This document shows, piece by piece, positions 6,970-59,721 of a stretch of 64,000 bases of DNA (positions are counted from its first letter, which is position 1; every line of letters begins with the position of its first letter). The notes beneath the pieces were generated by a model, which searched no databases, had not been told where the DNA came from, and saw only the letters and a program-made list of their open reading frames with translations. Location of the stretch: assembly GCA_020632095.1 (NCBI GenBank), contig JACKGF010000002.1, positions 16,502 to 80,501 of the forward strand, written 5' to 3'. Source of the DNA: Candidatus Nomurabacteria bacterium (lineage in GTDB: Bacteria > Patescibacteriota > Minisyncoccia > Phycocordibacterales > UBA918). Position numbers and translations under genes: made by a program.

Positions 6970-7051
6970 GCCTCGGTGGCGGAATTGGTAGACGCGCACG
7001 ACTCAAAATCGTGTTCCGAAAGGGGTGAGGGTTCGATTCCCTCCCGAGGCA
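6970..7051 (+). tRNA. tRNA-Leu (anticodon CAA), long variable arm
   Basis: Cloverleaf by eye: acceptor gcctcgg/ccgaggc, anticodon loop cuCAAaa, T-loop ggttcgattcc. CCA is not encoded. Confidence 0.9.
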
Positions 7052-7052
7052 C

Positions 7053-7548
7053 AAAAATCGTGTTCCGAAAGGCTGAAATGATTCGGGGAATCATTTCAGA
7101 AGGTTGCCTGATATTTTATGACGTTAGGAAATAAAATGTCGACAACCTGTACTGCGCCGGTACGGCGGGAGGGTTCGATTCCCTCCCGAGGCACAAGAAA
7201 ACCGCGTTTAGCGGTTTTCTTGTGCCGAGAGAACAGTCTGGGAGACTGTTCGTGGGGGTGTCGAAAAGGTTGCCAGCTGTTTTGGAGCCTGCGACAAAAC
7301 GGCGACAACCTATACTGAACATGTAATGTTCGATTCCCTCCCGAGGCACAAATAACCAACCTGATACGCGCTAGCGTTCAGGTTGTTGTTATTTGTAGCC
7401 TCGGGAGGGGATCGAAAGCCACAGACTCATGTGAATTTCGAAGCGAAGCGGAGAAAGAGAGAGTCGAGGCAGGGTCGTGAGCGACATATTTTTAACGAGT
7501 AAGCGAGTATAAAAATAGTTGACTCCTGACTGATTCCCTCCCGAGGCA
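7053..7548 (+). repeat. three direct repeats of the tRNA-Leu(CAA) 3' end plus one inverted degenerate copy (att-site-like remnants)
   Basis: gagggttcgattccctcccgaggca recurs at 7168-7193, 7328-7348 and 7532-7548. An inverted degenerate copy sits at 7398-7420. Each unit starts with a terminator-like hairpin. Confidence 0.75.
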
Positions 7549-7627
7549 CATAATTTACAATCTAATAATTTGACAAACATATACTTTTAGTGTATACTGT
7601 GATTTGTTATTTTTTGGAGCACAAAAA

Positions 7628-12391: not shown

Positions 12392-13549
12392 ATGTACGAA
12401 TTAAAATTGTTCAACCCATCTTTTGACACTGAATTAGTGGATTTGATTGTTGACTTAGATCAATTGCGGCGGAAAAAACTAGGAGGAAGTACTCACCCTG
12501 CTATCTTCTTTCAATTAAAGAATATTTTTCACACTCTTGAGAGTATTGGTTCGGCACGTATAGAAGGTAACCATACGACAATTGCAGAATTCATTGAAAC
12601 AAAAATAAAGAGTAAAAACGACACAGGAATGGTGAAAGATGAAAAAATCCGCGAGATTCAAAACGGTGAAAAGGCCTTGGAATACATTGATCGGCAGATA
12701 GGTGAATTAGGTGGACAAATAACTGCTTCTTTTTTGAGTGAGATCCATAAAATTGTGGTTGATGGACTAACTCCACACCCTGACGGAGAAGGAAGCAAAA
12801 AACCTGGATCTTACAGAAATGTAAACGTGATAATTGGCGGATCTAATGTAGTTACTGCAGAGTTTCCGCTTGTACCTAATCTCATGAACGACTTAATTAC
12901 GTTCATCCAGAATCCTGATGCAGAGAAATACGACTTGTTGAAAACAGCTATTTCACATCATAGATTTACCATCATCCATCCTTTTGACAATGGTAATGGA
13001 CGTACAGTTCGCCTACTAACTTATTCTATGCTGGTTAAGCAGGGATTTAACGTTAATGTTGGTAGAATTTTAAACCCAACAGCAATTTTTTGTAGTGATA
13101 GAGAGAATTATTATAAAATGCTTGGACTTGCTGATAAAGGTACGGAAGAAGGTCTACGCGAATGGTCAGAATATGTGCTTAAAGGTCTCAAGACAGAAAT
13201 TGAAAAAGTCGATAAGTTATTAAATTATTCGTACTTATCAAAAAACATCCTTGAGGTCGCTGTAGCACACGCACTCGAGAGAAAACTCATCACTGATACC
13301 GAAGCGCATATTTTGAAAATTGCGATTGAAAAACAAGTAATTCAGCAAAGTGACATTAAACACATATTCCCTGGAAAAGACGCCTCTCAGGTCTCTCGAG
13401 TAATTAAGAAACTACTTACCGAAAATATAATTACAACAGAACGTGAAAGCAAGAGAAAGTACATATTAAATTTTCAAAATAACTACCTTTTGCGAGGAAT
13501 AGTGAAGGCTCTTGATAACGAAGGCTTCCTGCCAGCCAGTCTTAAATAG
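12392..13549 (+). CDS. Fic/DOC family protein (AMPylation-type) with a C-terminal wHTH-like region
   Basis: Fic motif HPFDNGNGRTVRLL. The N-terminal SARIEGN resembles an inhibitory helix motif. Confidence 0.85.
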   Translation: MYELKLFNPSFDTELVDLIVDLDQLRRKKLGGSTHPAIFFQLKNIFHTLESIGSARIEGNHTTIAEFIETKIKSKNDTGMVKDEKIREIQNGEKALEYIDRQIGELGGQITASFLSEIHKIVVDGLTPHPDGEGSKKPGSYRNVNVIIGGSNVVTAEFPLVPNLMNDLITFIQNPDAEKYDLLKTAISHHRFTIIHPFDNGNGRTVRLLTYSMLVKQGFNVNVGRILNPTAIFCSDRENYYKMLGLADKGTEEGLREWSEYVLKGLKTEIEKVDKLLNYSYLSKNILEVAVAHALERKLITDTEAHILKIAIEKQVIQQSDIKHIFPGKDASQVSRVIKKLLTENIITTERESKRKYILNFQNNYLLRGIVKALDNEGFLPASLK

Positions 13550-13589: not shown

Positions 13590-14300
13590 ATACAGTAAAC
13601 AACCACCGGCCTTAGGGCCGGTGGCTTTGGCTCAACCTAACGGCGTGAGCTTCAGGCCCGCGAAGCGGGCAGATACATAGTTAATCAGAGATAAGTTTGG
13701 TAAAGAGAGATGGTTGATCAACTTGATTATGGTGATGTTGGTGTTTAACATACCGACAGATAATCATTTCATCTAGACCAATCGTAGAAACAAAATAGCC
13801 TCTGGCCCATGGTGACTTTTGTTCATAAAGACCATGAGCTCTTTTAATTTTCTTTTTTAACCAAGCTGAGCTTTTGTGCCTTTAATCATCTGCATTATGT
13901 ATGAGATGGAGTCTCTAGGTGAAGCTGATAGAATCATGTGTATATGGTCTTCTTGGATATTGAGTTCAATGATTTCCCAGTGTTTCCATCTTGTTATGGT
14001 TTCAAAGGTTATTCGAAACTCATCTTTAACCTTTTGTGGGCCTAGTACCTTACCTCGGTATTTTGGAGTCCATACTAGGTGGTATTTCATTTCGTAATAA
14101 CAATGTGATAGGGTTTTAATGGTACGTTTGCGTATACGTATTGTATTAATTACTAAAGCTGTCCTGCCGGACAGCTTTAGTATATGCGTTGCCTGCAAAC
14201 GTACACTCCGGCTGAAGCCGGAGGTTTTTAGATATAAACATCCCGTGACCTTGAGGCCACGGGTAGGGTTACAGACTCGGCACAAGCAGCCCAAGTCTCT
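13590..14300 (-). mobile_element. IS200/IS605-family element (tnpA only), probably inactive
   Basis: Y1 HUH transposase remnants flanked by sub-terminal hairpins (gctgtcctgccggacagc, ccggctgaagccgg, cccgtg...cacggg at the left end; ccaccggccttagggccggtgg at the right end). Confidence 0.55.
13681..14090 (-). pseudogene. tnpA: IS200-type transposase TnpA, frameshifted in an A-run
   Basis: MKYHLVWTPKYRGKVL...DHIHMILSASP (HUH) is in one frame. The C-terminal KSPWARGYFVSTIG (catalytic Tyr region) is in the -1 frame after ggttaaaaaag near 13850. Confidence 0.6.
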
Positions 14301-16179: not shown

Positions 16180-17185
16180 TGTATGGTCCCTCCAGCTACC
16201 CCTCAAGTAGGACAGATTGCTCATAATAATACTCACTCGAAATCCTAAAATCAATACACTCTTTCGGTCGGTCATTCAAGAAGGTATGAATCTCATTCAA
16301 TTCTTCTTGAGTAACAGACGCAATGTCTCTCCGCTTTGGAACAAAGCATCTAATCCAACGATTAGTATTCTCTACCAGTCCCTTCTCCCAAGAATGATAA
16401 GGGTGGCAGAAATAGATTGGAGCCTGTATGATTTGTTCTAGTTCCGTCCAGTGACGGAATGCAATGTCGTTGTCGGTGGTGATACTCTTGACTATAATAT
16501 TGCTAAACATTTTAGAGAACGCTGCACTGATTGTGTGGCGTTTTCTATTGGGTAACTGACGTACCAAGCTGTATTTAGTTAAACGGTCAGTAGCCACTAG
16601 AAGTACGTATGGACTGTACTTAGAGACAATGAAGTCTAGTTCATAGTGACCTAGCTCATGGCTACCAAGAGGACGAATATCTATATATTTACGGCCATCA
16701 TCAGCTGGTTTATGTGTGGTCCGTTTCGGACCACTTTTCTTTTTGTTCCAACGCCAGAATAGTCGATATTCCAGACCACGACTTTCTATGAACTTGTATA
16801 TAGCTTTGGCGGAACAGGTAACACCGAGCTCTCGTTTGAGATGTCCACTGATTTGTTTAGGGGTCCACTTCTTCTCCAATTTGTCTTCTACGAAACGAAT
16901 CAGGAAACTATCTAGAGCCACCTTGAGACACTGTCGTTTAGCGCGCCAACGACGTTGACTTACTTTTAGTTGGGCTTGCTTGGCGTCATAGACTCCATTA
17001 ACCCTATTCTTCTTTAGTTCCTGACTGATGGTGTTGGGACTACGTTTGAGGAAGATGGCTATTTCTCTGATCAAACTCCCTGCGTTCAATAACTTTTCAA
17101 TTACGAAACGCTCCTCAAATTGTATGTGTCTGTATGTTTTCATAGACAGCGAATTTACTTTATAGCTGTCCTACTTCAAAGGTGT
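16180..17185 (-). mobile_element. IS30-family insertion sequence
   Basis: Contains an IS30 transposase. The ends carry inverted AAGTAGGACAG (16186-16200 region versus 17165-17179). Confidence 0.6.
16196..17143 (-). CDS. IS30-family transposase
   Basis: N-terminal HTH and a DDE core with an IS30-like signature (TTDNDIAF, HPYHSWEKGLVENTNRWIR). Confidence 0.9.
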   Translation of the reverse strand: MKTYRHIQFEERFVIEKLLNAGSLIREIAIFLKRSPNTISQELKKNRVNGVYDAKQAQLKVSQRRWRAKRQCLKVALDSFLIRFVEDKLEKKWTPKQISGHLKRELGVTCSAKAIYKFIESRGLEYRLFWRWNKKKSGPKRTTHKPADDGRKYIDIRPLGSHELGHYELDFIVSKYSPYVLLVATDRLTKYSLVRQLPNRKRHTISAAFSKMFSNIIVKSITTDNDIAFRHWTELEQIIQAPIYFCHPYHSWEKGLVENTNRWIRCFVPKRRDIASVTQEELNEIHTFLNDRPKECIDFRISSEYYYEQSVLLEG

Positions 17186-20254: not shown

Positions 20255-20992
20255 TTATTTACCTAAACAGTTTGCAAGCATTACTCTCAATTGAAAAATA
20301 GTATCCGACTTTAATTTAACCCGTAATGAATCTTTTTGGGCATCATTTAACAATTCACCCAAACCATCAAGAATATGTTTGTTATCCATTTTCTCAAGTA
20401 ACTTTATACATTGAACCAAGGTCTCTTCGAATGACATCCCAGATCGAGCCTTAACAATCTCTTGGTTAATAGGCCAGTTATTCTTGGCAAAAAAATTGAC
20501 ATCGAAAATATCACGACTCGTTTTTCCAACTCGCTCATACATAGCCATCAATTTATGGGCAAACATGTCTTCCCGAATCATTACCAACATAGATATTCCC
20601 AACAGTGTCTTCACATCATAGCGAGACCCGAATTGCCGGCGATTGACTTCGATTTTAATATTCTGTGACTGGGGATGATAAGAAATAATATTTAATAAGG
20701 TATATTTTTTTTGGTAAGAATTTTTAATCTCCCCATATTCCTTAACAATTAAATTTATTTTTTCAAACACTTCAGCCTCCTTTGTCTCATCCAACAAATC
20801 GAGATCAATATCTACAGAGTGTCGAGGTAAGCCATAAAACATCATAGCAGCTGTTCCACCTTTGAAGCCCAAATATGGAGAAATGGATGTGTCAGTATAA
20901 ATATCCTTTAAGATCTGCAGTATTGTACTTTTATGCTGGGGATAATCGAATTTCATATAGCTATATTTCATTATAGTCTGCAAAATATTCAT
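20255..20992 (-). CDS. abiEii: AbiEii/AbiGii nucleotidyltransferase toxin (DUF1814)
   Basis: Signature LGFKGGTAAMMFYGLPRHSVDIDLD. The annotated ORF extends to 21040, but the start at Met17 avoids overlap with abiEi. Confidence 0.8.
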   Translation of the reverse strand: MNILQTIMKYSYMKFDYPQHKSTILQILKDIYTDTSISPYLGFKGGTAAMMFYGLPRHSVDIDLDLLDETKEAEVFEKINLIVKEYGEIKNSYQKKYTLLNIISYHPQSQNIKIEVNRRQFGSRYDVKTLLGISMLVMIREDMFAHKLMAMYERVGKTSRDIFDVNFFAKNNWPINQEIVKARSGMSFEETLVQCIKLLEKMDNKHILDGLGELLNDAQKDSLRVKLKSDTIFQLRVMLANCLGK

Positions 20993-21554
20993 CCACCTTT
21001 TCTTGTAAGCGCTTATTTTTATATATTGGCAATATCTCAAAAACCTTTTTCCAATTCAAGTTAGCTAAATTATCAAAATGATAATCTTTACTAACATAAA
21101 GTCGGTCTAAAAATGCCCGCTCTTGAGTTGCAATTGAAAAATTATTTATGTGCTCAACACCAGCACTATTACTTAAAATATCGTCTTTTACTCTAACAAA
21201 CTGAATCATTTGATTTCCAGCTTTAACTTCTCGCTTAATATAAGATGCAACAAAAATGTTTCCATAAAACTGGAAGTTTACACCTTCTCTAGTCAAGACT
21301 GTCTCAAAACTTACATATGAAGGAGTGTAAATCCTAGTAGCTAATTCTAAGCTATTGTAGTCATGATCTTTAGCATAAAATCCTCTATGAACGCGGATTA
21401 ACTTTCCAGATTTAACATATGACTTTAAACGATCGCTCACTACTGTTTTGTTACCCTCCCTCCACAACAAAGCAACATCTTTAGTTGAAAAGATGGTTTT
21501 TGAAGATCTTAATAAAACTTCTAAATATTCTCCTTTTACAGGTTTTTTATCCAT
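20961..21554 (-). CDS. abiEi: AbiEi antitoxin/transcriptional regulator
   Basis: Lies immediately upstream of abiEii on the same strand. AbiEi_4-like N-terminal wHTH (LLWREGNKTVVSDRLKSYVKSGKLIRVHRGFY). Confidence 0.75.
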   Translation of the reverse strand: MDKKPVKGEYLEVLLRSSKTIFSTKDVALLWREGNKTVVSDRLKSYVKSGKLIRVHRGFYAKDHDYNSLELATRIYTPSYVSFETVLTREGVNFQFYGNIFVASYIKREVKAGNQMIQFVRVKDDILSNSAGVEHINNFSIATQERAFLDRLYVSKDYHFDNLANLNWKKVFEILPIYKNKRLQEKVDEYFADYNEI

Positions 21555-31418: not shown

Positions 31419-31904
31419 CTACTTAATCATTCGTCTTTTTTGGTTCATACCACGATGAGTAGACTGCAAACTATGACAATTGGGACATAAAATCCTGAGA
31501 TTTTTTAGTCGATTATCAAGGCGGTCACCATTTATATGATCCAATTCAACAGGGATTCTACCATCTTCAGCCTGTTCTGCCCAGCCACAAATCTCACACT
31601 CAGGTTTCATTAAACCCTCATAAAATAATCTATGTTTCAGCTTATAACTCTGACACTTTGAACCCTTTACTAAAATTTCTGATAATTCACTTTTGGGTAA
31701 AAATGAAAAAATTCGATTCTTTCTCCATCCTTTTCCTGTGAAGTGAGTAGTATTTAGGTTTAATTCTTCAATATTTTGTTTGATTTGCACATAGTTACCA
31801 CCAGCCGGAACTAAGCCCAGGACTTTAATCACTTCTCTAACACTATAAGAGCTCTTTACTGCTTTTTTCAGATCATCATTACTCCATTTTTTCTTACGTG
31901 ACAT
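31419..31904 (-). CDS. HNH endonuclease
   Basis: CEICGW...ELDHINGDRLDNRLKNLRILCPNCH (HNH plus Zn-finger). Confidence 0.8.
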   Translation of the reverse strand: MSRKKKWSNDDLKKAVKSSYSVREVIKVLGLVPAGGNYVQIKQNIEELNLNTTHFTGKGWRKNRIFSFLPKSELSEILVKGSKCQSYKLKHRLFYEGLMKPECEICGWAEQAEDGRIPVELDHINGDRLDNRLKNLRILCPNCHSLQSTHRGMNQKRRMIK

Positions 31905-31999
31905 ATTATTATGGTATAGATATAATTCTAACACAATTTACAAGTACTCCACATAAAAATTTTTATATTTTTGATAAATAGTGCTATAGTGTCACTCAT

Positions 32000-32072
32000 G
32001 TCCTGGTGGCGAAGTGGTTAACGCTTCGGTTTGCAAAACCGACATGCGTGGGTTCGACTCCCACCCAGGACT
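32000..32072 (+). tRNA. tRNA-Cys (anticodon GCA)
   Basis: Acceptor gtcctgg/ccaggac, anticodon loop uuGCAaa. Confidence 0.85.
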
Positions 32073-32250
32073 CACGACAGTACAAGAGCAGACTGGTAAA
32101 TCCCTGGGTGGAAGTCGAACCAAGGTTCGCCCTGTTACAGAGGCGGTACACCTTTTGGACAGATTATTCTTTCAGTCTAATCTTCCTCAAAAGGTCTTGC
32201 AAAACGCCCCCGGCATTTTGAACCCATAGAGGACTAACAACAAAACGTAT

Positions 32251-33682
32251 GTAATAAAGAAGTAGAAATGTCCTCCCTAAAGAAATAGAAATGTCCTCCC
32301 GCAAGGGAGGACATTTCCTGTATGTTGTTGGTTCATGCACAACAACAAAAACATCATACTGACGGAAGCAGAAAAAGAAAAGGGAGAAATCATTAAAGGG
32401 TGTACTGAGGGTGATTATACAAATAGTGAAGCAGCAGAAAGACTAGGTTTGTCAGTTAGGCAGGTACGAAGACTAAAGCGTAAAGTTGAGGTGTTTGGAG
32501 TGGAAGGAATTCTGCATGGTCTCAAGGGGTCGCAGTCACACCGCAAGATAGACACAAAACAAGAAAAGAAAGTGTTAAAGTTCCTGAAAAAGAAAGACCA
32601 TCACGACTTCGGTCCAACGTTTGCGATGGAAAAGCTTGAGGAATTAGAGAACATCATTCTTGATGTTGGTACCGTTCGTCGCATCATGGTCGACGCTGAT
32701 CTCTGGAAACCCAAACAACAACGAATCAAACAATCACACAGACAGTGGCGCGAGCCAATGCTTCGCTATGGTGAGCTCATACAATACGATGGAAGCTACC
32801 ATGACTGGAACGAAGACGGTGAGGAGGAGTGCCTTCTCAAAGCCATCGACGACGCAACGAGTATTGTTACGAAAGCCGTATTTGACGATCATGAAGGTAT
32901 CGTGCCCACCTTTCGCTTCTGGTGGAAGTATATCGAGCGCCACGGGCGTCCACGGGCCATATACCTAGACAAATTCAGCACATACAAGGTCAATCATAAA
33001 AGCGCACAGGATAACATTCACTTCATGACACAGTTTGAGCGAGCCATGGAAACATTGGACATCAAGATTATCACTGCCCACTCACCAGAAGCAAAAGGTC
33101 GTGTCGAAAGGGGCTTTCGCACACATCAGGACAGGCTCGTGAAGGAACTTCGTCTGGCAAAGAAGAAGAACCAAGACGAGATGAATGACTTTCTCGAACA
33201 CACCTATCTCCCCAAGCACAACGGAACGTTTGGCAGAACTCCACGTGACCCCAGAGACGCTCATCGGCCACTGACAGACATTCTCAAAAAGAAACTCTCG
33301 TCCATATTCTCCAAACACTATCGCCGCATCGTTAAGAACGACTTCACTATTCAATGGAATGGACGATGGTTTCAGCTTCTTAACAATCAACCGACTACGG
33401 TATACAAAAAAGATGAGGTGATTATGGAAGAGTGGCTCGATAACTCCATACACATCCGTCACACACGAAACAAAGAAGTGTATCTGATATATCAAGAATT
33501 ACCGAACAAACCGAAACAGGTACGCCGACCACCGACTGTCTTGGAGCGAAAGAGTACCGCACACAAGCCGGCACCTGATCATCCATGGAGAAAGAAAAGA
33601 TAAAAAAACAAAAATTTGCTCTGACGTATTACACAACGTATTAATTAACTTGAACAGAGGACACTTCTACTTCACTGCAACA
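32251..33682 (+). mobile_element. IS copy 1 (~1432 bp, rve-type DDE transposase; ISNCY/IS1202- or IS481-like)
   Basis: 100% identical to 58235-59666. Terminal inverted repeats GAAGTAGAAATGTCCTC / GAGGACACTTCTACTTC. Flanked by a 17-bp direct repeat ctaacaacaaaacgtat. Confidence 0.85.
32335..33603 (+). CDS. DDE transposase (N-terminal HTH, rve-like core)
   Basis: HTH motif (AAERLGLSVRQVRRLKRK) and a D...D...E triad (YDGSYHDW, IYLDKFSTY, PEAKGRVERGFRT). Confidence 0.85.
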   Translation: MHNNKNIILTEAEKEKGEIIKGCTEGDYTNSEAAERLGLSVRQVRRLKRKVEVFGVEGILHGLKGSQSHRKIDTKQEKKVLKFLKKKDHHDFGPTFAMEKLEELENIILDVGTVRRIMVDADLWKPKQQRIKQSHRQWREPMLRYGELIQYDGSYHDWNEDGEEECLLKAIDDATSIVTKAVFDDHEGIVPTFRFWWKYIERHGRPRAIYLDKFSTYKVNHKSAQDNIHFMTQFERAMETLDIKIITAHSPEAKGRVERGFRTHQDRLVKELRLAKKKNQDEMNDFLEHTYLPKHNGTFGRTPRDPRDAHRPLTDILKKKLSSIFSKHYRRIVKNDFTIQWNGRWFQLLNNQPTTVYKKDEVIMEEWLDNSIHIRHTRNKEVYLIYQELPNKPKQVRRPPTVLERKSTAHKPAPDHPWRKKR

Positions 33683-33748
33683 CTAACAACAAAACGTATT
33701 GCGAAAACAACCAGAATAAGTTACACTCTCGGTCATAAATAAGTATAT

Positions 33749-33821: not shown

Positions 33822-34121
33822 CAACGTTAAGAAAAATAGTGCTGGTGCACTATTTTTTAGTTGTCCGGGGCGGAGACATAATTTTTCCTCCTTTCCTAGA
33901 GGAAAAATTGTCGAGCCAGGGTCGCAAGTACTTACTAGAATTTGAGCAAAGCGAAAAATTATAGTTAGTAACTTGTGACGACAAATTTGAACGCAGTGAA
34001 AATATGTACGGCCGAATAAATAATCTGGTAGATTATTTTTTTAGGGCTCGAAGCCCGATTGAGATATTTTGTGAGCAGAGCGAAACAAAATATCCAATTG
34101 GGACACTGGTTGTGTAACAAC

Positions 34122-34141
34122 CGAGCCCTTGAGGGCGGACA
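34122..34141 (+). repeat. direct repeat of the tRNA-Lys 3' end (att-like remnant)
   Basis: cgagcccttgagggcggaca lies 300 bp downstream of the tRNA. It is preceded by a ggttgtgtaacaacc hairpin. Confidence 0.6.
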
Positions 34142-34146
34142 ATCGC

Positions 34147-34188: not shown

Positions 34189-34464
34189 AGTCAGCAAACT
34201 GCTTTACTGACGGCGATTGTCCGAGCCGCAGGCATGTTTCGAGCGCGCTTCCAAGCGCGAGAAACAGCCGAGGTGGGGTGGCGAACACTTAGTAAATTTA
34301 GCACGAAGTGCATAAATATACTTAGTGATTCGTGACGACAACTTCCGCCTAGGGTTATTCCGCCTAGGGTTACCCTTGGTAAGGCTTTCTTTAGTAGGAT
34401 AACCTCCCCAAAAAAGTAGCCTTGAAATAAAAACTCTGCTATACTCGTCACCGTAACCACTCTT

Positions 34465-34546
34465 GCGCGGGTGGCGAAATTGGTAGACGCGCTAGTCTTA
34501 GGAACTAGTGGAGCAATCCGTGGAGGTTCAATTCCTCTCCCGCGCA
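34465..34546 (+). tRNA. tRNA-Leu (anticodon TAG)
   Basis: Acceptor gcgcggg/cccgcgc, anticodon loop cuUAGga, long variable arm. An extended -10 promoter (TGcTATACT) sits at 34438-34446. Confidence 0.9.
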
Positions 34547-35345
34547 CTGTTCAATAAAATAGCCTTCCCGAAAGGGAGGGTTATTTTATTGGTACAGTGC
34601 GGAGGGAAGAAAAGTCTGGGGGACTTTTCGGGAGGGATTGAAAAGGTTGCCAGCACTTTCTGGAGCTTGCGAACAGAAAGAGCGACAACCTATACTGAAT
34701 TCGTAGAATTCAATTCCTCTCCCGCGCACTGTTCAATAAAATAGCCTTCCCGAAAGGGAGGGTTATTTTATTGGTACAGTGCGGAGGGAAGAAAAGTCTG
34801 GGGGACTTTTCGGGAGGGATTGAAAAGGTTGCCAGCACTTTCTGGAGCTTGCGAACAGAAAGAGCGACAACCTATACTGAATTCGTAGAATTCAATTCCT
34901 CTCCCGCGCACTGTTCAATAAAATAGCCTTCCCGAAAGGGAGGGTTATTTTATTGGTACAGTGCGGAGGGAAGAAAAGTCTGGGGGACTTTTCGGGAGGG
35001 ATTGAAAAGGTTGCCAGCACTTTCTGGAGCTTGCGAACAGAAAGAGCGACAACCTATACTGAATTCGTAGAATTCAATTCCTCTCCCGCGCACTGTTCAA
35101 TAAAATAGCCTTCCCGAAAGGGAGGGTTATTTTATTGGTACAGTGCGGAGGGAAGAAAAGTCTGGGGGACTTTTCGGGAGGGATTGAAAAGGTTGCCAGC
35201 ACTTTCTGGAGCTTGCGAACAGAAAGAGCGACAACCTATACTGAATTCGTAGAATTCAATTCCTCTCCCGCGCACTGTTCAATAAAATAGCCTTCCCGAA
35301 AGGGAGGGTTATTTTATTGAACAGTGCGGAGGGAAACAAAGTCTG
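34547..35345 (+). repeat. 182-bp tandem direct repeat array (4 identical units plus a degenerate fifth). Each unit ends with the last 21 nt of tRNA-Leu(TAG)
   Basis: Units lie at 34547-34728, 34729-34910, 34911-35092 and 35093-35274, with a partial unit from 35275 to about 35345. Each unit begins with a terminator-like hairpin aataaaatagccttccc-gaaa-gggagggttattttatt. Confidence 0.9.
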
Positions 35346-35469
35346 GGGGACTTTTCCTAATACAGAAAATTATACAGCTAGATACATTTACAAACCCTCA
35401 ACTATTTGCTTTATTAGTTATGGAGTTAACTGTTTATAACCAGTAGTACTTTCAGGGAAAGGTTTAAAA

Positions 35470-36000
35470 ATGACCATAATAAGAGTTGGTAGTGGGTTTA
35501 CAAGGAAAGCTAAACCTATACCACCCTTCGAACACTACCAAACACTAGGGACTGTCAGAGTACCAGAAGACCCTAAGACACCACCAGGCCTCTGGTTGCG
35601 TGTAAACTACAACAACACACCAGTAACAGACGATAATCTACCCTACCTGCAGCATAGGAGCTTATCACCAGGAGACCAGCTTCACGTCAGTGTCTTCATC
35701 AGTCATCAAGACCAGACTCTAGAAAACTGCTTAAGGTTCCTTAAACGCAGACACGCCGTATACCCTGGTATAAAAGGACTGTTGTCGGTAGCAACACAAA
35801 TGGGTGATGATTTGCCCGAACACTTATTCAGTGTCCTGTTCCATGGCGACGGCGATGAACAAGAAGTGAGCAATCATTGCTGTAACACTGCATCTTGTAT
35901 CTGCAACAAAAGCCCAGGACTTCCTTCCTTTCTAACTTTCGCCCAAGACGTAAAATTGTTAGCTGGTTTCCCGCTACTATGCTTCAGTGAAATCAACTAG
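35470..36000 (+). CDS. hypothetical protein (possible cargo downstream of the tRNA repeat array)
   Basis: 176-aa ORF followed by a terminator hairpin at 36016-36044. Confidence 0.45.
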   Translation: MTIIRVGSGFTRKAKPIPPFEHYQTLGTVRVPEDPKTPPGLWLRVNYNNTPVTDDNLPYLQHRSLSPGDQLHVSVFISHQDQTLENCLRFLKRRHAVYPGIKGLLSVATQMGDDLPEHLFSVLFHGDGDEQEVSNHCCNTASCICNKSPGLPSFLTFAQDVKLLAGFPLLCFSEIN

Positions 36001-45243: not shown

Positions 45244-45792
45244 TTAAGCTTTACGAAAGGCTAACCCGTAATGATGATCACCAGCCGGGTACTCGCGCTC
45301 GAAGACGAAGCCGTTTGATTCAAACAAAGCTGTCACTTCAGAAGAAGACATGACGTGACCAGGCTGAGGACCCATACCAGCAAAGGATTCGGTCCAATCA
45401 ACAACAAAGAAATTACCCCCAGATCTTAAGGTTCTGGACATTTCTTTAATTGAAGCCTCTTTATCTTCGATTAAAAATAAAGTATTGACTAGTACTGCCA
45501 CATCAAGTTCGCCAGTACTTATCTTGATTCCTTCCGGCTCTTCGAGATCACACCAAATAGGGTAAATATTATGCAGGCCTTGAGCACGGGACTGTTCACC
45601 TAATTTTTCTACTAGCGCTTTTTGGATTTCACAGACATAAACTCTACCCGACTCACCGACAGCATTAGATAGTGTTTTCATAAAAAAGCCACTACCAGCA
45701 CCGAAATCGGCCACGGTGTCGCCTTCCTTAATGTGAAAATGCGAAGCTACCACTTCCGGTATAACAAACCGCCCGCCAATTGGTGTATTCAT
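45244..45792 (-). CDS. class I SAM-dependent methyltransferase
   Basis: Motif I VADFGAGSGFF and motif post-I/II. Confidence 0.8.
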   Translation of the reverse strand: MNTPIGGRFVIPEVVASHFHIKEGDTVADFGAGSGFFMKTLSNAVGESGRVYVCEIQKALVEKLGEQSRAQGLHNIYPIWCDLEEPEGIKISTGELDVAVLVNTLFLIEDKEASIKEMSRTLRSGGNFFVVDWTESFAGMGPQPGHVMSSSEVTALFESNGFVFEREYPAGDHHYGLAFRKA

Positions 45793-45879: not shown

Positions 45880-45888
45880 TTCTACACT

Positions 45889-46322
45889 TTACGTCCAGGA
45901 ATTTGCCCTAGGGAAATATCTGGGACCATTGGTATAGCTGGTTCATTTACAGCTCGCTACCAGCATATTCTCCCTCGGTAGGTCTGAGCTATGCATACAG
46001 AGATACATTCCTTTCAGTCATTATTTTCCAACAATCTGCTTTTCAGTCTTTACTCGTTTACGTCCAGGAATTTGCCCTAGGGAAATATCTGGGACCATTG
46101 GTATAGCTGGTTCATTTACAGCTCGCTACCAGCATATTCTCCCTCGGTAGGTCTGAGCTATGCATACAGAGATACATTCCTTTCAGTCATTATTTTCCAA
46201 CAATCTGCTTTTCAGTCTTTACTCGTTTACGTCCAGGAATTTGCCCTAGGGAAATATCTGGGACCATTGGTATAGCTGGTTCATTTACAGCTCGCTACCA
46301 GCATATTCTCCCTCGGTAGGTC
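45889..46322. repeat. 169-bp tandem direct repeat, 2.6 copies, non-coding
   Basis: Copies start at 45889, 46058 and 46227 and are identical. The third copy is truncated. 169 is not a multiple of 3 and no ORF is present. Confidence 0.9.
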
Positions 46323-46379
46323 GAATCTGCTGAAGCGCCTGTATAAATTCGCAATAGTCGCCGACGGCTCCTTTGCTCA

Positions 46380-48848
46380 TTAAACAAATACAACACTAGC
46401 GATCTCGTCACCAGCGCGCATCTTCATCACTCGCACTCCTTGAGTTTGACGACCGAGGGTTGGGACATCCTTAAGTGGCAACTTAATCACTTGACCCTTC
46501 TTGCTCATAATCACCAACTCTCCTTCCATACGCTCTTCCCCAGTTACAATCAAACCACGAACGATTTTTCCAGTCTTACTAGTTACTTTAGCTGTCTTAA
46601 TACCAGAACCACCACGCTTTTGGGTCTTATACTCCTTAGCTGGAGTCGATTTACCATAACCAAGCTCAGTCACAATCAACACCTCCCTATCTTTATCGCC
46701 TGATTTTAGAACCTCAGCCGACACAATAATGTCACCCTTAACCAACTTCATACCAGTTACTCCGGCCGCTGTTCGCCCCATTTGTCTAATATCAGTCTCC
46801 TTAAATCGGATTGCCTGACCTTTTTGCGTAATTAGAGACACCTCATCACCCTTACCAACAAACTGCGCTGCTATGAGTGAGTCACCTTCTCGCAAAGTAA
46901 TCGCAATCAAACCACTACGACGCACATCTTTAAATGAAGCTGCGTCACTCTTCTTAGCCACACCATCTTTAGTAACCATCATAAGTGACCAATCACCAGC
47001 CCAATCTTCTTTCCGAACAGCCAGCACAGAAGTTATCTTTTCTTCAGAACTTAACGACAGGAAGTTCATAATAGACTTACCTTTAGTGGCTCGTCTTCCT
47101 TCTGGAATCTCATACATCTTGCATTGGAAAACTTTTCCACCATCAGTGAAGAATAGTAGGTCACTGTGAGCTGACGTGGTAAGTAAAGTGGTTACCATAT
47201 CCTCCTCCTTGGTATTTAGGTCGACCACCCCTACTCCTCCACGTTTTTGGGTTTTGTATTCAGTTGGGTTTGTACGTTTTACGTAGCCACCCTTGGTAAG
47301 TACCAGCACACTTTCGTCATCTGGAATCAGGTCCTCTTGACTCATTTGTTTAACCCCTCCCTTAACAATCTTGGTCCGACGATCGTCACCAAACTTATCA
47401 GCCACTTCTTGTAATTCAGTTTTAACGATATTCATCATTTTAGCCTTACTTTTCAGAATAGCTTCTAGTTCTTTAATCAGTTTCTGAATCATTGCTAACT
47501 CATCTTCAATCTTCTTGCGTTCCAAGCCAGCCAACTTCTGCAACCGCATATCAAGAATCGCTTGAGCCTGAATATCTGAGAATTTAAACTCTTTCATTAA
47601 AGCCGCGTGAGCCGTCGGTACATCCTTTGAAGCACGAATTAGCTTGATAATTTTGTCGATATGATCAAGCGCTTTCTTTAGACCAAGCAAAATATGTTCG
47701 CGGTCTTTAGCCTTCCCTAAATCATACTCGGTCCGACGACGAATCACTTCTGCTCGGTGCTTGATATATTCCTGCAAAATACCCTTCAAAGATAAAGTTT
47801 GTGGAATACCGTTCACCAAAGCTACCATGTTGTAGTGGAAAGTATCTTCTAGTTGGGTGTGCTTGTAGAGTTTATTTAAAACTGTTTGTGGCTGAGCACC
47901 AACCTTCAACTCAATTACTACTCGAATATCAGAAGTTGACTCATCCCGCATTTCTCGGATACCTTCAATCTTTTTTTCTCGGACCAAATTAGCAATCTTT
48001 TCTTGCATGTCAGCCTTATTGACTCGGAACGGAATTGAAGTAATCACAATTGAGAAAGCTCCCCGTTTATCTTCAACGATTTCCGCCTCACCGCGCACCA
48101 CAACACCACCCCGTCCATTTGCATAGGCTTGAGCTATAGCTTTCTTATCAAAGGCAATTCCGCCAACTGGAAAGTCTGGACCCTGAACATGCTTAAGCAG
48201 GTCATCAGTTGATGCTTCCGGATCATCAATCAAATGATTAGTGGCCGCTACCACCTCACGCAGGTTGTGTGGGGGAATATTAGTTGCCATTCCAACGGCA
48301 ATACCAAGTGAACCTAGTAAAAGCAAATTAGGAGCAGCTGCTGGTAATACCGTTGGTTCCTTCTTAGTACCATCAAAGTTTGGTCGCCAGTCAACCGTGT
48401 CTTTCTCTAAATCACGAAGCATTTCCTCGGAAATTTTGGACATCTTAGCCTCAGTGTAACGATAAGCCGCCGCACTATCGCCGTCGATGGAACCGAAGTT
48501 ACCCTGCCCTAAAACCAGTGGATAACGTGTGGAAAAACCCTGTGCCAACTTAACCATTGCCTCATACACAGCCGAGTCTCCATGAGGGTGAAAACTACCA
48601 AGAACGTCTCCTACTACAGTCGCCGATTTCTTGAACTTTGCTGTAGAGGTCAATCCGTTTAGACGCATTGAGTATAAAATACGACGGTGAACCGGTTTTA
48701 AACCATCTCGCACATCAGGCAAAGCCCGTTGCGTAATAACAGACATCGCATAATCGAGATACGCTGTCTCCATTTCGCCTGCAATACTTTGCATTACGAT
48801 TCCTTTTCTTGGGTCGATTGATTCCTGGGCTGGTGACTTTTTCGGCAT
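46380..48848 (-). CDS. gyrA: DNA gyrase subunit A
   Basis: Active-site Tyr region (AAMRYTE), QRDR motif, and C-terminal beta-pinwheel repeats. Confidence 0.95.
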
Positions 48849-58229: not shown

Positions 58230-58234
58230 AAGCT

Positions 58235-59666
58235 GTAATAAAGAAGTAGAAATGTCCTCCCTAAAGAAATAGAAATGTCCTCCCGCAAGGGAGGACATTT
58301 CCTGTATGTTGTTGGTTCATGCACAACAACAAAAACATCATACTGACGGAAGCAGAAAAAGAAAAGGGAGAAATCATTAAAGGGTGTACTGAGGGTGATT
58401 ATACAAATAGTGAAGCAGCAGAAAGACTAGGTTTGTCAGTTAGGCAGGTACGAAGACTAAAGCGTAAAGTTGAGGTGTTTGGAGTGGAAGGAATTCTGCA
58501 TGGTCTCAAGGGGTCGCAGTCACACCGCAAGATAGACACAAAACAAGAAAAGAAAGTGTTAAAGTTCCTGAAAAAGAAAGACCATCACGACTTCGGTCCA
58601 ACGTTTGCGATGGAAAAGCTTGAGGAATTAGAGAACATCATTCTTGATGTTGGTACCGTTCGTCGCATCATGGTCGACGCTGATCTCTGGAAACCCAAAC
58701 AACAACGAATCAAACAATCACACAGACAGTGGCGCGAGCCAATGCTTCGCTATGGTGAGCTCATACAATACGATGGAAGCTACCATGACTGGAACGAAGA
58801 CGGTGAGGAGGAGTGCCTTCTCAAAGCCATCGACGACGCAACGAGTATTGTTACGAAAGCCGTATTTGACGATCATGAAGGTATCGTGCCCACCTTTCGC
58901 TTCTGGTGGAAGTATATCGAGCGCCACGGGCGTCCACGGGCCATATACCTAGACAAATTCAGCACATACAAGGTCAATCATAAAAGCGCACAGGATAACA
59001 TTCACTTCATGACACAGTTTGAGCGAGCCATGGAAACATTGGACATCAAGATTATCACTGCCCACTCACCAGAAGCAAAAGGTCGTGTCGAAAGGGGCTT
59101 TCGCACACATCAGGACAGGCTCGTGAAGGAACTTCGTCTGGCAAAGAAGAAGAACCAAGACGAGATGAATGACTTTCTCGAACACACCTATCTCCCCAAG
59201 CACAACGGAACGTTTGGCAGAACTCCACGTGACCCCAGAGACGCTCATCGGCCACTGACAGACATTCTCAAAAAGAAACTCTCGTCCATATTCTCCAAAC
59301 ACTATCGCCGCATCGTTAAGAACGACTTCACTATTCAATGGAATGGACGATGGTTTCAGCTTCTTAACAATCAACCGACTACGGTATACAAAAAAGATGA
59401 GGTGATTATGGAAGAGTGGCTCGATAACTCCATACACATCCGTCACACACGAAACAAAGAAGTGTATCTGATATATCAAGAATTACCGAACAAACCGAAA
59501 CAGGTACGCCGACCACCGACTGTCTTGGAGCGAAAGAGTACCGCACACAAGCCGGCACCTGATCATCCATGGAGAAAGAAAAGATAAAAAAACAAAAATT
59601 TGCTCTGACGTATTACACAACGTATTAATTAACTTGAACAGAGGACACTTCTACTTCACTGCAACA
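58235..59666 (+). mobile_element. IS copy 2 (identical to copy 1)
   Basis: Same terminal inverted repeats. The 17-bp direct repeat acaccagtctaaaagct occurs at 58218-58234 and 59666-59682. The insertion point coincides with the stop codon of the upstream HisRS-like gene. Confidence 0.85.
58319..59587 (+). CDS. DDE transposase (identical to 32335-33603)
   Basis: 422 aa, identical to the copy-1 transposase. Confidence 0.85.
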   Translation: MHNNKNIILTEAEKEKGEIIKGCTEGDYTNSEAAERLGLSVRQVRRLKRKVEVFGVEGILHGLKGSQSHRKIDTKQEKKVLKFLKKKDHHDFGPTFAMEKLEELENIILDVGTVRRIMVDADLWKPKQQRIKQSHRQWREPMLRYGELIQYDGSYHDWNEDGEEECLLKAIDDATSIVTKAVFDDHEGIVPTFRFWWKYIERHGRPRAIYLDKFSTYKVNHKSAQDNIHFMTQFERAMETLDIKIITAHSPEAKGRVERGFRTHQDRLVKELRLAKKKNQDEMNDFLEHTYLPKHNGTFGRTPRDPRDAHRPLTDILKKKLSSIFSKHYRRIVKNDFTIQWNGRWFQLLNNQPTTVYKKDEVIMEEWLDNSIHIRHTRNKEVYLIYQELPNKPKQVRRPPTVLERKSTAHKPAPDHPWRKKR

Positions 59667-59721
59667 CACCAGTCTAAAAGCTTGCACCATTTCGCACTAA
59701 ATGATATGCTCTTGCCCACAT

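Follow-up and report, generated by a model that had tools for sequence, protein, structure and literature searches.

Direct repeats of the 3' end of a transfer RNA (tRNA) gene, starting from the T-loop, are the classic footprint of integration into tRNA genes. Functional RNAs are also encoded beside tRNAs: the 3'ETS-leuZ sponge RNA of E. coli is processed from a tRNA transcript, and 'theta' ribozymes, which are similar to those of the hepatitis delta virus (HDV), adjoin the tRNAs of phages. Among archaea, non-canonical tRNA introns include T-loop positions, and their transposition between tRNAs has been proposed. The present analysis concerns a module, here termed M1, in a stretch of 64,000 nucleotides (nt) of a Candidatus Nomurabacteria bacterium (GenBank assembly GCA_020632095.1, contig JACKGF010000002.1, positions 16,502 to 80,501; hereafter the window, in which positions are counted from the first letter). 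M1 is situated 50-100 nt downstream of same-strand tRNAs of 17 amino-acid types and is flanked on its 5' side by an inverted copy (a') and on its 3' side by a direct copy (a) of the end of the respective tRNA. With moderate confidence, it is interpreted as the conserved core of a family of structured RNAs that is spread throughout the Patescibacteria, resides in tRNA 3' flanks and acts at the RNA level on the tRNA-sense strand, and not as a recombination arm. Literature searches, including searches by conserved sequence strings, yielded no description of the element, and an architecture of this kind, in which a tRNA's own end flanks a module both as an inverted and as a direct copy, appears to have no described counterpart.

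In outline, the units that contain M1 resemble attachment (att) sites of the T-loop class, in which a complete tRNA is followed by a distant direct repeat of its 3' part from the T-loop and in which tandem accretion is possible. There are, however, fundamental differences: the M1 units carry neither an integrase nor cargo genes, measure only 135-185 base pairs (bp), are absent from phage, plasmid and viral collections, and possess in addition the inverted copy of the tRNA end as well as a covarying fold of RNA type at the junction. The BIME and REP-REPIN repeats of Enterobacteria and Pseudomonas, the BOX repeats of pneumococcus and the Correia repeats of Neisseria are similar to M1 in being short, multi-copy, modular and rich in stem-loops, in their location in the 3' flanks of genes and in their variable copy number, and they are sometimes transcribed. 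Whereas these repeats are restricted to species or genera and have constant ends, the junction nucleotides of M1 are identical across class-level lineages of a phylum; furthermore, M1 is tied to the 3' ends of tRNAs, keeps to their strand (134 copies against 4) and has flanks built from the local tRNA.

The 3'ETS-leuZ RNA and the theta ribozymes share with M1 the position of a structured RNA encoded immediately 3' of a tRNA, probably under the same promoter, whereas M1 has another fold, has no match in Rfam, lies beyond a terminator-like hairpin and is accompanied by copies of the tRNA end. Equally to the archaeal tRNA introns, M1 is a conserved insert beside position 53/54 of many tRNAs, and at one group of mirrored loci (class 1), which consist of a copy of tRNA positions 1-53, a hairpin (H1), M1, around 50 nt and the intact tRNA, the sequence reads tRNA(1-53) and then M1. 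In contrast to these introns, M1 is bacterial and has no bulge-helix-bulge motif, the functional tRNA is never interrupted, and an intact copy is always adjacent. Finally, tRNA-like RNAs (the tRNA-like domain of transfer-messenger RNA (tmRNA), YrlA, mascRNA) also reuse T-arm and acceptor sequence within a larger RNA; in the M1 units, however, the T-loop is base-paired, and an acceptor-like helix exists in about 25-30% of the units, extending over the trailer and without a free NCCA end.

Concerning its structure, M1 comprises two hairpins, P3 and P4, which are joined by a conserved linker of 6 nt (GUACUG or one of the variants GUACAG, GAACAG, AUACUG and ACACUG). P3 has a length of about 45-60 nt and exhibits a C-A mismatch and a bulged A or U, whereas P4 consists of 5 bp with a GUA triloop, which is found in 115 of 121 copies. 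The inverted copy a' and the downstream copy a can pair as a further helix, P2, which closes a three-way junction. Around 15 unpaired nucleotides are conserved in this compact junction; the conserved unpaired letters are the GAAA before P3, the C-A mismatch, the bulged A or U of P3, the linker and the GUA triloop. Those of the junction are identical across class-level lineages, whereas the stems drift with compensation.

Across 101 non-identical sequences, 92.5% of the pairs of the fold P2-P3-P4 are standard pairs, and double changes occur at 24 of the 31 pairs; the number of doubly changed cells amounts to 426 compared with 137 in shuffles, none of 500 of which reached the observed value, and pairing falls to 35-47% when the partner column is slid. 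In P4, all four Watson-Crick types are represented at three positions. The search pattern held the base of P3 constant, such that covariation could be assessed there only in a broader set, which was fitted to the covariance model and is hence somewhat favourable to the fold. In that set, 93.2% of positions are paired (slid controls reach up to 49%) and double changes are found at 30 of 31 pairs, the base helix of P3 included, where G-C and C-G occur in ratios of 46:15 and 51:21 and G-C and U-A in a ratio of 55:12. Independent evidence of the fold comes from P3 and P4. Folding z-scores range from -4.5 to -6.3.

A module of around 100 nt common to one unit behind tRNA-Leu(CAA) (unit B) and to the 182-bp units behind tRNA-Leu(TAG) had already been noticed in a first-pass annotation of the window, and the alignment of positions 7235-7351 with 34613-34729 bears this out, with 94 of 121 columns identical (78%) as against a mean of 49% and a maximum of 55% in 200 shuffles. 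Both units end, as stated there, in the 3' end of their own tRNA (exact identity from G53/T54 over 22-25 nt and 21-27 nt, respectively). The compensatory changes named in that annotation have to be revised. The stems AGTC/GACT and GGTTG/CAACC exist, but are identical in unit B and the TAG unit and hence show no compensation there, and CCAG/CTGG lies outside the fold supported by covariation. Actual compensation between the two units is found in the inner part of P3 (TGTTTTG/CAAAACG against CTTTCTG/CAGAAAG) and in P4 (AACAT/ATGTT against AATTC/GAATT), as well as in the helix with the T-loop copy. A covariance model found further, diverged copies. That the module is a defined element and not random DNA holds in view of its strong covariation and its presence at more than 118 loci in other genomes.

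The pairing is markedly strand-asymmetric. Over the whole fold, G-U combinations exceed A-C combinations by 121 to 41, and within P3 and P4 by 44 to 6. Of 59 short P3 tips, 30 have an initial G and would allow a GNRA tetraloop, despite being drawn mostly as triloops by RNAfold; the long tips resemble a mini-hairpin situated between UGA and GAA, and some of them read by eye as C(GUAA)G or G(CUUG)C. With respect to the nearest tRNA, 122 of 174 copies of M1 lie downstream and 12 upstream on its own strand, 4 are located on the other strand, and the remaining 36 have no tRNA within 700 nt, partly on account of contig ends. The pairing asymmetry, the tips and the folding z-scores indicate an RNA of tRNA sense, or at least a single strand of that sense. 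M1 combines compensatory pairs with a strand-specific signature, two of the three features by which a conserved structured non-coding RNA motif is operationally defined; for the third, a transcript, the orientation bias relative to the tRNAs is indirect evidence only. The first-pass annotation had left the choice between a small RNA and a recombination arm: the former agrees with the excess of G-U pairs, the GNRA-compatible tips and the orientation of the copies, whereas the latter does not agree with the missing integrase, the missing phage, plasmid and viral copies and the small unit size.

The flanks of M1 follow the tRNA closely. On the 5' side, a' is an inverted copy, 9-25 nt long, of the T-loop and T-stem, and on the 3' side the direct copy extends from around T54 to the 3' end. 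It begins 10-11 nt past the linker and repeats, in most units, the last 21-22 nt of the tRNA (from G53/T54), although the length of the repeated segment varies between about 13 and 30 nt and in a subtype ("beta") the copy joins at about position 60. The copy does not contain CCA, even where the tRNA gene encodes it (loci L101 and L114). The inverted copy is the Watson-Crick complement of tRNA positions 54-61 in 97-100% of the units and of position 65 in 32%. Its complementarity reaches the acceptor strand clearly in about a quarter to a third of the units (around 23 of 81) and, where present, this anti-acceptor pairing continues through the trailer; overall, it barely exceeds the control (7.8 against 7.2 of 10). 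The unit is set apart from the tRNA by a hairpin, mostly of terminator type, and a terminator-like hairpin also follows the copy in 33 of 77 units, compared with 2 of 77 in shuffles.

The distribution of M1 was determined with an exact pattern in contigs of one genome per species; the counts are lower bounds. More than 118 loci were found, almost all of them in metagenome-assembled genomes (MAGs) of Patescibacteria. Among the matches listed, about 98 carry a Patescibacteria name (Saccharibacteria, Paceibacteria/Parcubacteria, Kaiserbacteria, Nomurabacteria, Minisyncoccia), 12 belong to unnamed MAGs and 7 to three MAGs with other names. One match in Bacillaceae is a chance match, possessing neither P4 nor a tRNA copy. 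Applied to the first 100 loci, the covariance model recovered 148 copies, of which about 40 do not fit the exact pattern. The pattern had no match in 2.9 million viral contigs, and no relative of unit B was found in the phage and plasmid collections.

Concerning inheritance, nearest relatives were determined for 90 copies using only the interior of P3 and P4, i.e., parts that owe nothing to the tRNA. The nearest relative is found in another genome at a tRNA of the same anticodon in 13 of 90 cases (3.35 expected; reached in none of 300 shuffles) and at a tRNA of the same amino-acid type in 26 (9.9 expected), whereas it lies in the same genome in 2 cases only (0.73 expected), a value reached by 58 of 300 shuffles and hence not significant. 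The units are therefore inherited with their tRNA rather than hopping within genomes. At the tRNA-Leu(CAA) loci beside parB, the sets of units differ between lineages; in one of these loci (L099), the spacer hairpin and H1 are orthologous to those of unit B at roughly 85-90% identity, and the tRNAs are 87% identical. Each tRNA copy matches its own tRNA, which indicates concerted change. In another genome fragment (L044), 7 copies of M1 are found within 8 kb. As loss between direct repeats should be easy in genomes of roughly 1 Mb, the retention of the units suggests selection.

The interpretation of M1 as an element acting at the RNA level starts from direct observations, namely of the fold and its strand, of the tRNA linkage and of the way in which the units are inherited. 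Under this interpretation, the unit would be transcribed from the strong tRNA promoter, with the tRNA or just after it, by read-through of the first hairpin. The helix between a' and a would close the RNA fold and keep the spare tRNA end off the real tRNA, and the invariant junction nucleotides together with the GUA loop might constitute a docking surface for a protein or RNA partner common to all Patescibacteria. Changes in copy number, as in the array of 4.6 units described below, would arise by recombination or slippage between the repeated tRNA ends.

Several observations weigh against this interpretation. In 48 of 77 units, a terminator-like hairpin with a T-run separates M1 from the tRNA, such that expression requires read-through or an unseen promoter. 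Where the tRNA and its copy differ, a' matches the genuine tRNA better in 32 cases and the copy in 1, and the covariation of P2 is accordingly inherited from the tRNA; since both strands of P2 derive from the tRNA, this covariation is no independent proof of the helix, and it could also be maintained by DNA-level correction between the arms of a palindrome. Of 97 bystander tRNAs in the loci, 20 are followed by a repeat of their 3' end and 10 possess an inverted copy. The presence of the units is patchy, and the element is consequently dispensable for any given tRNA. Moreover, no conserved neighbouring protein was found within 4 kb of the 118 loci, so that no partner can be named.

Of the alternatives, a selfish mosaic intergenic repeat survives best, although it is considered doubtful. 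M1, H1, the spacer hairpins and a second module (M2) would then be DNA or single-stranded-DNA modules, comparable to miniature inverted-repeat transposable elements (MITEs) or to REPIN, BIME or BOX repeats, which are moved by a transposase acting in trans or by recombination at the conserved T-loop, the hairpins being recognition structures and not a working RNA. The modular build, in which the same platform of a' and spacer bears either M1 or M2, would fit such a repeat, as would the tandem arrays and differences in copy number (including the seven copies in L044), the patchy presence or absence at orthologous tRNAs, the one inverted unit, the central position of M1 in an inverted repeat built from target sequence, and the transposases in the window, among them an IS200-like fragment. 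However, constant terminal inverted repeats and a target duplication of fixed length were not found (the ends of the units differ between loci, as does the tRNA segment in length), nor were recent bursts, within-genome copies not being each other's closest relatives; it is same-tRNA relatives in other genomes that are in excess. No transposase is linked to the units at the 118 loci. Unpaired nucleotides that remain identical across class-level lineages while the stems compensate, strand-asymmetric pairing, GNRA-compatible tips and the orientation with the tRNA likewise speak against a selfish repeat.

A further reading, which is regarded as rather unlikely even with its three forms taken together, holds the unit to be a tRNA-specific RNA device, in which M1 as scaffold, a' as antisense strand and the spare 3' half would act on the unit's own tRNA. 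It might do so as a switch of precursor maturation, as a guide of an effector to the T-arm, or as a ribozyme supplying a replacement 3' half.

The first of these forms, taken as an explanation in its own right, is a cis-acting switch on tRNA maturation. The inverted copy would pair either with the 3' half of the real tRNA, blocking the acceptor and T stems, or with the decoy copy, setting the tRNA free, and M1 would be a sensor domain which tips the balance in the manner of a riboswitch or attenuator. The complementarity of a' is indeed kept to the genuine tRNA (positions 54-61, and the better fit in 32 cases against 1) and spans the acceptor strand and trailer in part of the units; tRNA, a' and copy are ordered suitably for alternative pairing, and a three-way junction with conserved unpaired nucleotides is aptamer-like. 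The switch is nonetheless a purely architectural inference, the consistent core of a' comprises only about 9 nt, a terminator is often situated before a', and the distribution is patchy, all of which make it improbable. In RNAfold predictions for tRNA plus unit, the 5' acceptor strand of the tRNA paired with the downstream copy (a "swapped" fold) at 52 of 52 loci; the same fold arose in every control, in which a' or the whole spacer was shuffled or replaced by (CAA)n; the swapped fold therefore reflects the handling of unmodified tRNA by the energy model and says nothing about a'.

That M1 is a small ribozyme or intron-like element at the T-loop, cleaving or ligating at its 3' edge (between P4 and T54), is likewise hardly to be expected. 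Such an element could set free a spare 3' half of the tRNA that bears a 5'-OH, for repair of the RtcB type, or could excise the insert from read-through transcripts. The suggestion draws on the roughly 15 conserved unpaired nucleotides of the compact junction, the sharp border with the tRNA copy at G53/T54, the class 1 loci, where M1 follows the tRNA(1-53) copy exactly, and the existence of group I introns in tRNAs of the same bacteria. On the other hand, no known ribozyme model matches: among the curated families of Rfam 15 (which cover, e.g., hammerhead, HDV-like, twister, pistol, hatchet, group I/II introns, T-box, tmRNA, HEARO and ROOL/GOLLD), only tRNAs reach the gathering score in the window, and nothing credible covers M1 at E values up to 10; in the additional loci, Rfam likewise returned tRNAs only, apart from one group I intron elsewhere. 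A hammerhead is rejected, as an alignment reading places the junction strands (3, 6 and 0) in the wrong cyclic order and a G at the would-be cleavage nucleotide. A tRNA intron is rejected as well: 124,590 in-silico excisions around 173 copies of M1 recovered only the already intact upstream tRNA, i.e., removal of M1 at no locus restored a tRNA that was otherwise missing. Furthermore, the junction is not strictly fixed, since beta-type units join at about position 60.

An att-site arm or scar of integrase-mobilised elements, either attP-only mini-elements or remnants of islands in the T-loop of tRNAs, is very unlikely. As at such sites, a direct repeat of the tRNA 3' part from the T-loop, exact over up to 30 nt, bounds the units, and tandem accretion is seen. 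However, clustering of 1209 open reading frames (ORFs) within 4 kb of the 118 loci yielded only housekeeping clusters and no integrase, recombinase or other conserved neighbour, and Pfam searches of the ORFs in the window revealed no integrase or recombinase beside the units. In addition to the small unit size and the absence from the viral, phage and plasmid collections, a T-stem-like core site is missing on the 5' side of the T-loop copy, the inverted a' is not a feature of att sites, and the covariation is of RNA type; an integrase or att remnant is accordingly rejected. A DNA regulatory element is the most improbable explanation: a sigma70-like promoter in M1 (xxGACA, 16 nt, TAnnnT), driving a short RNA (acceptor 3' strand of the tRNA plus terminator) or the next unit, could account for GCGACA-16-TAGAAT and TTGCGA-18-TATACT in every TAG unit (9 sites compared with 2.3 expected in the promoter scan), with hexamers (34667-34709 and the same offsets in each 182-bp unit) on the most conserved letters of M1, but the Lys, Cys and other subfamilies have lost both the hexamers and their spacing while keeping the helices by compensation, and a promoter has no need of covarying stems.

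Further identities were considered and rejected. A tRNA-like acceptor mimic for RNase P or RNase Z does not agree with anti-acceptor pairing in a minority of units and the lack of a free 3' tail, and a primer-binding site does not agree with a' complementing the genomic trailer and not CCA. Concerning a type III toxin-antitoxin array, the ORF that follows the 182-bp array (35470-36000) belongs to no Pfam family, and no downstream gene is conserved across the loci. The unit size and the missing linked gene fit neither such an array nor a TIGR-like array.

The window itself is a segment of a bacterial chromosome, in which Pfam searches of the ORFs identified topA, relA/spoT, parB, ahpC, miaA, clpB, infB, gyrA and pth, and in which ARAGORN found seven tRNA genes. 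In place of the six copies of the module counted in the first-pass annotation, the covariance model finds eight copies of M1 (7089-7176, 7255-7339, 34042-34130, four within 34632-35265, and 32122-32207 on the minus strand). The pattern AGGTTGCC-N(20-45)-GACAACCTNTACTG occurs 6 times in the window, but never in 100 shuffles.

The intact gene of tRNA-Leu(CAA) occupies positions 6970-7052 on the plus strand (ARAGORN; Rfam tRNA, 61.1 bits), and its 3' end (repeat family D6) recurs three more times downstream, closing the units A, B and C, all of them on the plus strand. Unit A (7053-7198) contains a diverged M1, which is set inside a copy of the tRNA 3' half from the anticodon loop to the end. Directly 3' of the tRNA, it begins with a copy from the anticodon loop to the variable arm (AAAATCGTGTTCCGAAAGG, 7054-7072), followed by hairpin H1 (CTGAAATGATT-CGGGG-AATCATTTCAG, 7073-7099), which abuts P3 as in class 1 loci. 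M1 follows at 7101-7167 (P3 7101-7148, linker GTACTG 7149-7154, P4 7155-7167 with CGCCG-GTA-CGGCG; covariance-model match 7089-7176, 73.5 bits), and the unit is closed by a copy of the T-arm and 3' end at 7169-7195, of which 26-28 nt are identical to the tRNA.

Unit B starts with a spacer hairpin (GGCACAAGAAAACCGC-GTTTA-GCGGTTTTCTTGTGCC, 7190-7226), whose arms contain the end of the preceding tRNA copy and the complement of that end, and to which an orthologous hairpin exists in L099. It continues with H1 (7231-7251, loop UGGGA), a hairpin recurring in many loci, and with a' (GGGGGTGTCGAA, 7254-7265), the inverted copy of the T-loop and the 3' strand of the T-stem, which forms the 5' strand of P2 according to the fold and the covariation alignment. 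M1 extends over 7267-7330 (P3 7267-7311, linker ATACTG 7312-7317, P4 7318-7330 with AACAT-GTA-ATGTT; covariance-model match 7255-7339, 84 bits; fold z = -4.5) and is followed at 7328-7350 by the direct copy from G53/T54 to the 3' end, with 25 nt exact in the comparison with the tRNA end. Unit C (7351-7550) has the same frame of spacer, a' and tRNA copy as the M1 units, but other cargo, which includes M2: spacer hairpin and full a' lie at 7351-7417, M2 at 7463-7530 and the tRNA 3'-end copy at 7532-7550. Units of this type recur in L034, L094, L081 and L071. A look-up by the neighbouring ParB found identical strains only, one contig with a single-base difference and three others that break at the repeat. 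Compared with window positions 6970-7015, these short-read contigs from three independent assemblies of one strain (L120, L121, L122) stop within tRNA-Leu(CAA), at the segment AAAATCGTGT... that is repeated in unit A or a little ahead of it.

Behind tRNA-Leu(TAG) (34465-34547, plus strand; ARAGORN and Rfam), Tandem Repeats Finder (TRF) identified 4.6 tandem units of 182 bp with 99% matches (34527-35356, plus strand). Each unit consists of the tRNA-end copy, a terminator-like hairpin, an anti-acceptor strand, H1, a' and M1, with M1 matches at 34632-34719, 34814-34901, 34996-35083 and 35178-35265; the fifth unit stops after H1. A 318-bp unit (33823-34142, plus strand; repeat D11; covariance model 54.4 bits; fold z = -6.3) follows tRNA-Lys(CTT). 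It is composed of a terminator, a partial a', M2 (33910-33982), a' (34043-34053), a variant of M1 (P3 34054-34102, linker ACACTG, P4 34109-34121; covariance-model match 34042-34130) and a copy of the tRNA-Lys 3' end (34122-34142), and the base helix of P3 reads CCCGATTG/CAATTGGG in place of AGGTTG/CAACCT. A diverged, inverted M1 (32122-32207, minus strand; 32.3 bits, E = 2.4e-6 in the covariance model) is situated 30 nt downstream of tRNA-Cys (32000-32073); read along the minus strand, a copy of the 3' end of tRNA-Cys comes next, at about 32101-32121.

The second module, M2, is a long irregular hairpin with a 5' motif GAGSYRGGGTSG..GA, a tip like GAGCGAAGCGAA, which is the same motif as in the long P3 tips of M1, and a 3' part ..TCGTGAC. 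Its copies in the window are located at 7463-7530, 33910-33982 and 34270-34339, and others are found in L041 (about 2020-2090), L020, L034, L071, L081 and L094. M2 fills the same frame of a' and tRNA copy as M1 ("type II units") and can share a unit with it, e.g., after tRNA-Lys. Between the M2 copy upstream of tRNA-Leu(TAG) and the promoter region of this tRNA, a 15-bp sequence, TTCCGCCTAGGGTTA, occurs twice as a direct repeat (34343-34372).

In a third class of loci (L090 6330-6530, L003, L085, L068, L020 and L094), M1 is preceded by GGTGAGAAATGGG-hairpin-CCCATTTCGCAAG in place of a', and in some cases a second M1-like hairpin and M2 occur with it in nested or tandem arrangement. No tRNA lies within 8 kb of two of these loci (L090 and L003); M1 is thus not strictly tied to tRNAs. 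In L041 (1460-2000), the anticodon loop of a tRNA harbours a group I intron (Rfam, 52.8 bits). Behind this tRNA come a terminator and then an M1 unit, in which P4 carries an insertion of around 80 nt ahead of the tRNA-end copy.

Among the other features of the window are two identical insertion sequences of 1434 bp (32250-33683 and 58234-59667), which encode a protein of 422 amino acids (aa) with only helix-turn-helix (HTH) domains in Pfam and are bordered by unusually long target duplications of 17-18 bp (ACTAACAACAAAACGTAT; ACACCAGTCTAAAAGCT); the first copy directly adjoins the inverted M1 by tRNA-Cys. A truncated IS200-like Y1 transposase (13857-14290, minus strand; ORF 13857-14100) retains about 77 aa with the HUH motif, its C-terminal half being gone; it lies 6 kb from the units, its three upstream hairpins are unrelated, and linkage to the M1 units was not seen. 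Between tRNA-Leu(TAA) and tRNA-Cys there is a free-standing gene of an HNH endonuclease (31419-31934, minus strand). A methyltransferase gene (45244-45792, minus strand) is separated from the end of gyrA (46380-48848, minus strand) by a perfect tandem repeat of 169 bp that is unrelated to M1 (45888-46394; 2.6 copies, 100% identical). The window furthermore contains an IS30-like transposase (16196-17143), an AbiEii/AbiEi pair (20255-21554) and a Fic protein (12392-13549).

Patescibacteria constitute a large share of bacterial diversity, possess genomes of roughly 1 Mb and are poorly understood. A structured RNA in many copies, whose junction is unchanged across class-level lineages, likely marks undescribed biology in this group. 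As the units are built around copies of tRNA ends, this biology probably concerns tRNA expression, quality control, or the traffic of mobile elements at tRNA genes. In practical terms, the repeated tRNA ends resemble scars of integration, with a risk of mis-annotation as att sites; they also break short-read assemblies inside tRNA genes and make tRNA fragments appear more numerous than they are. Its compact size (about 75-100 nt) and clear consensus make the family an easy target for biochemistry and for deletion in tractable Saccharibacteria. If the units were indeed RNA devices acting on their own tRNAs, they would represent a new layer of tRNA control or repair that is private to Patescibacteria.

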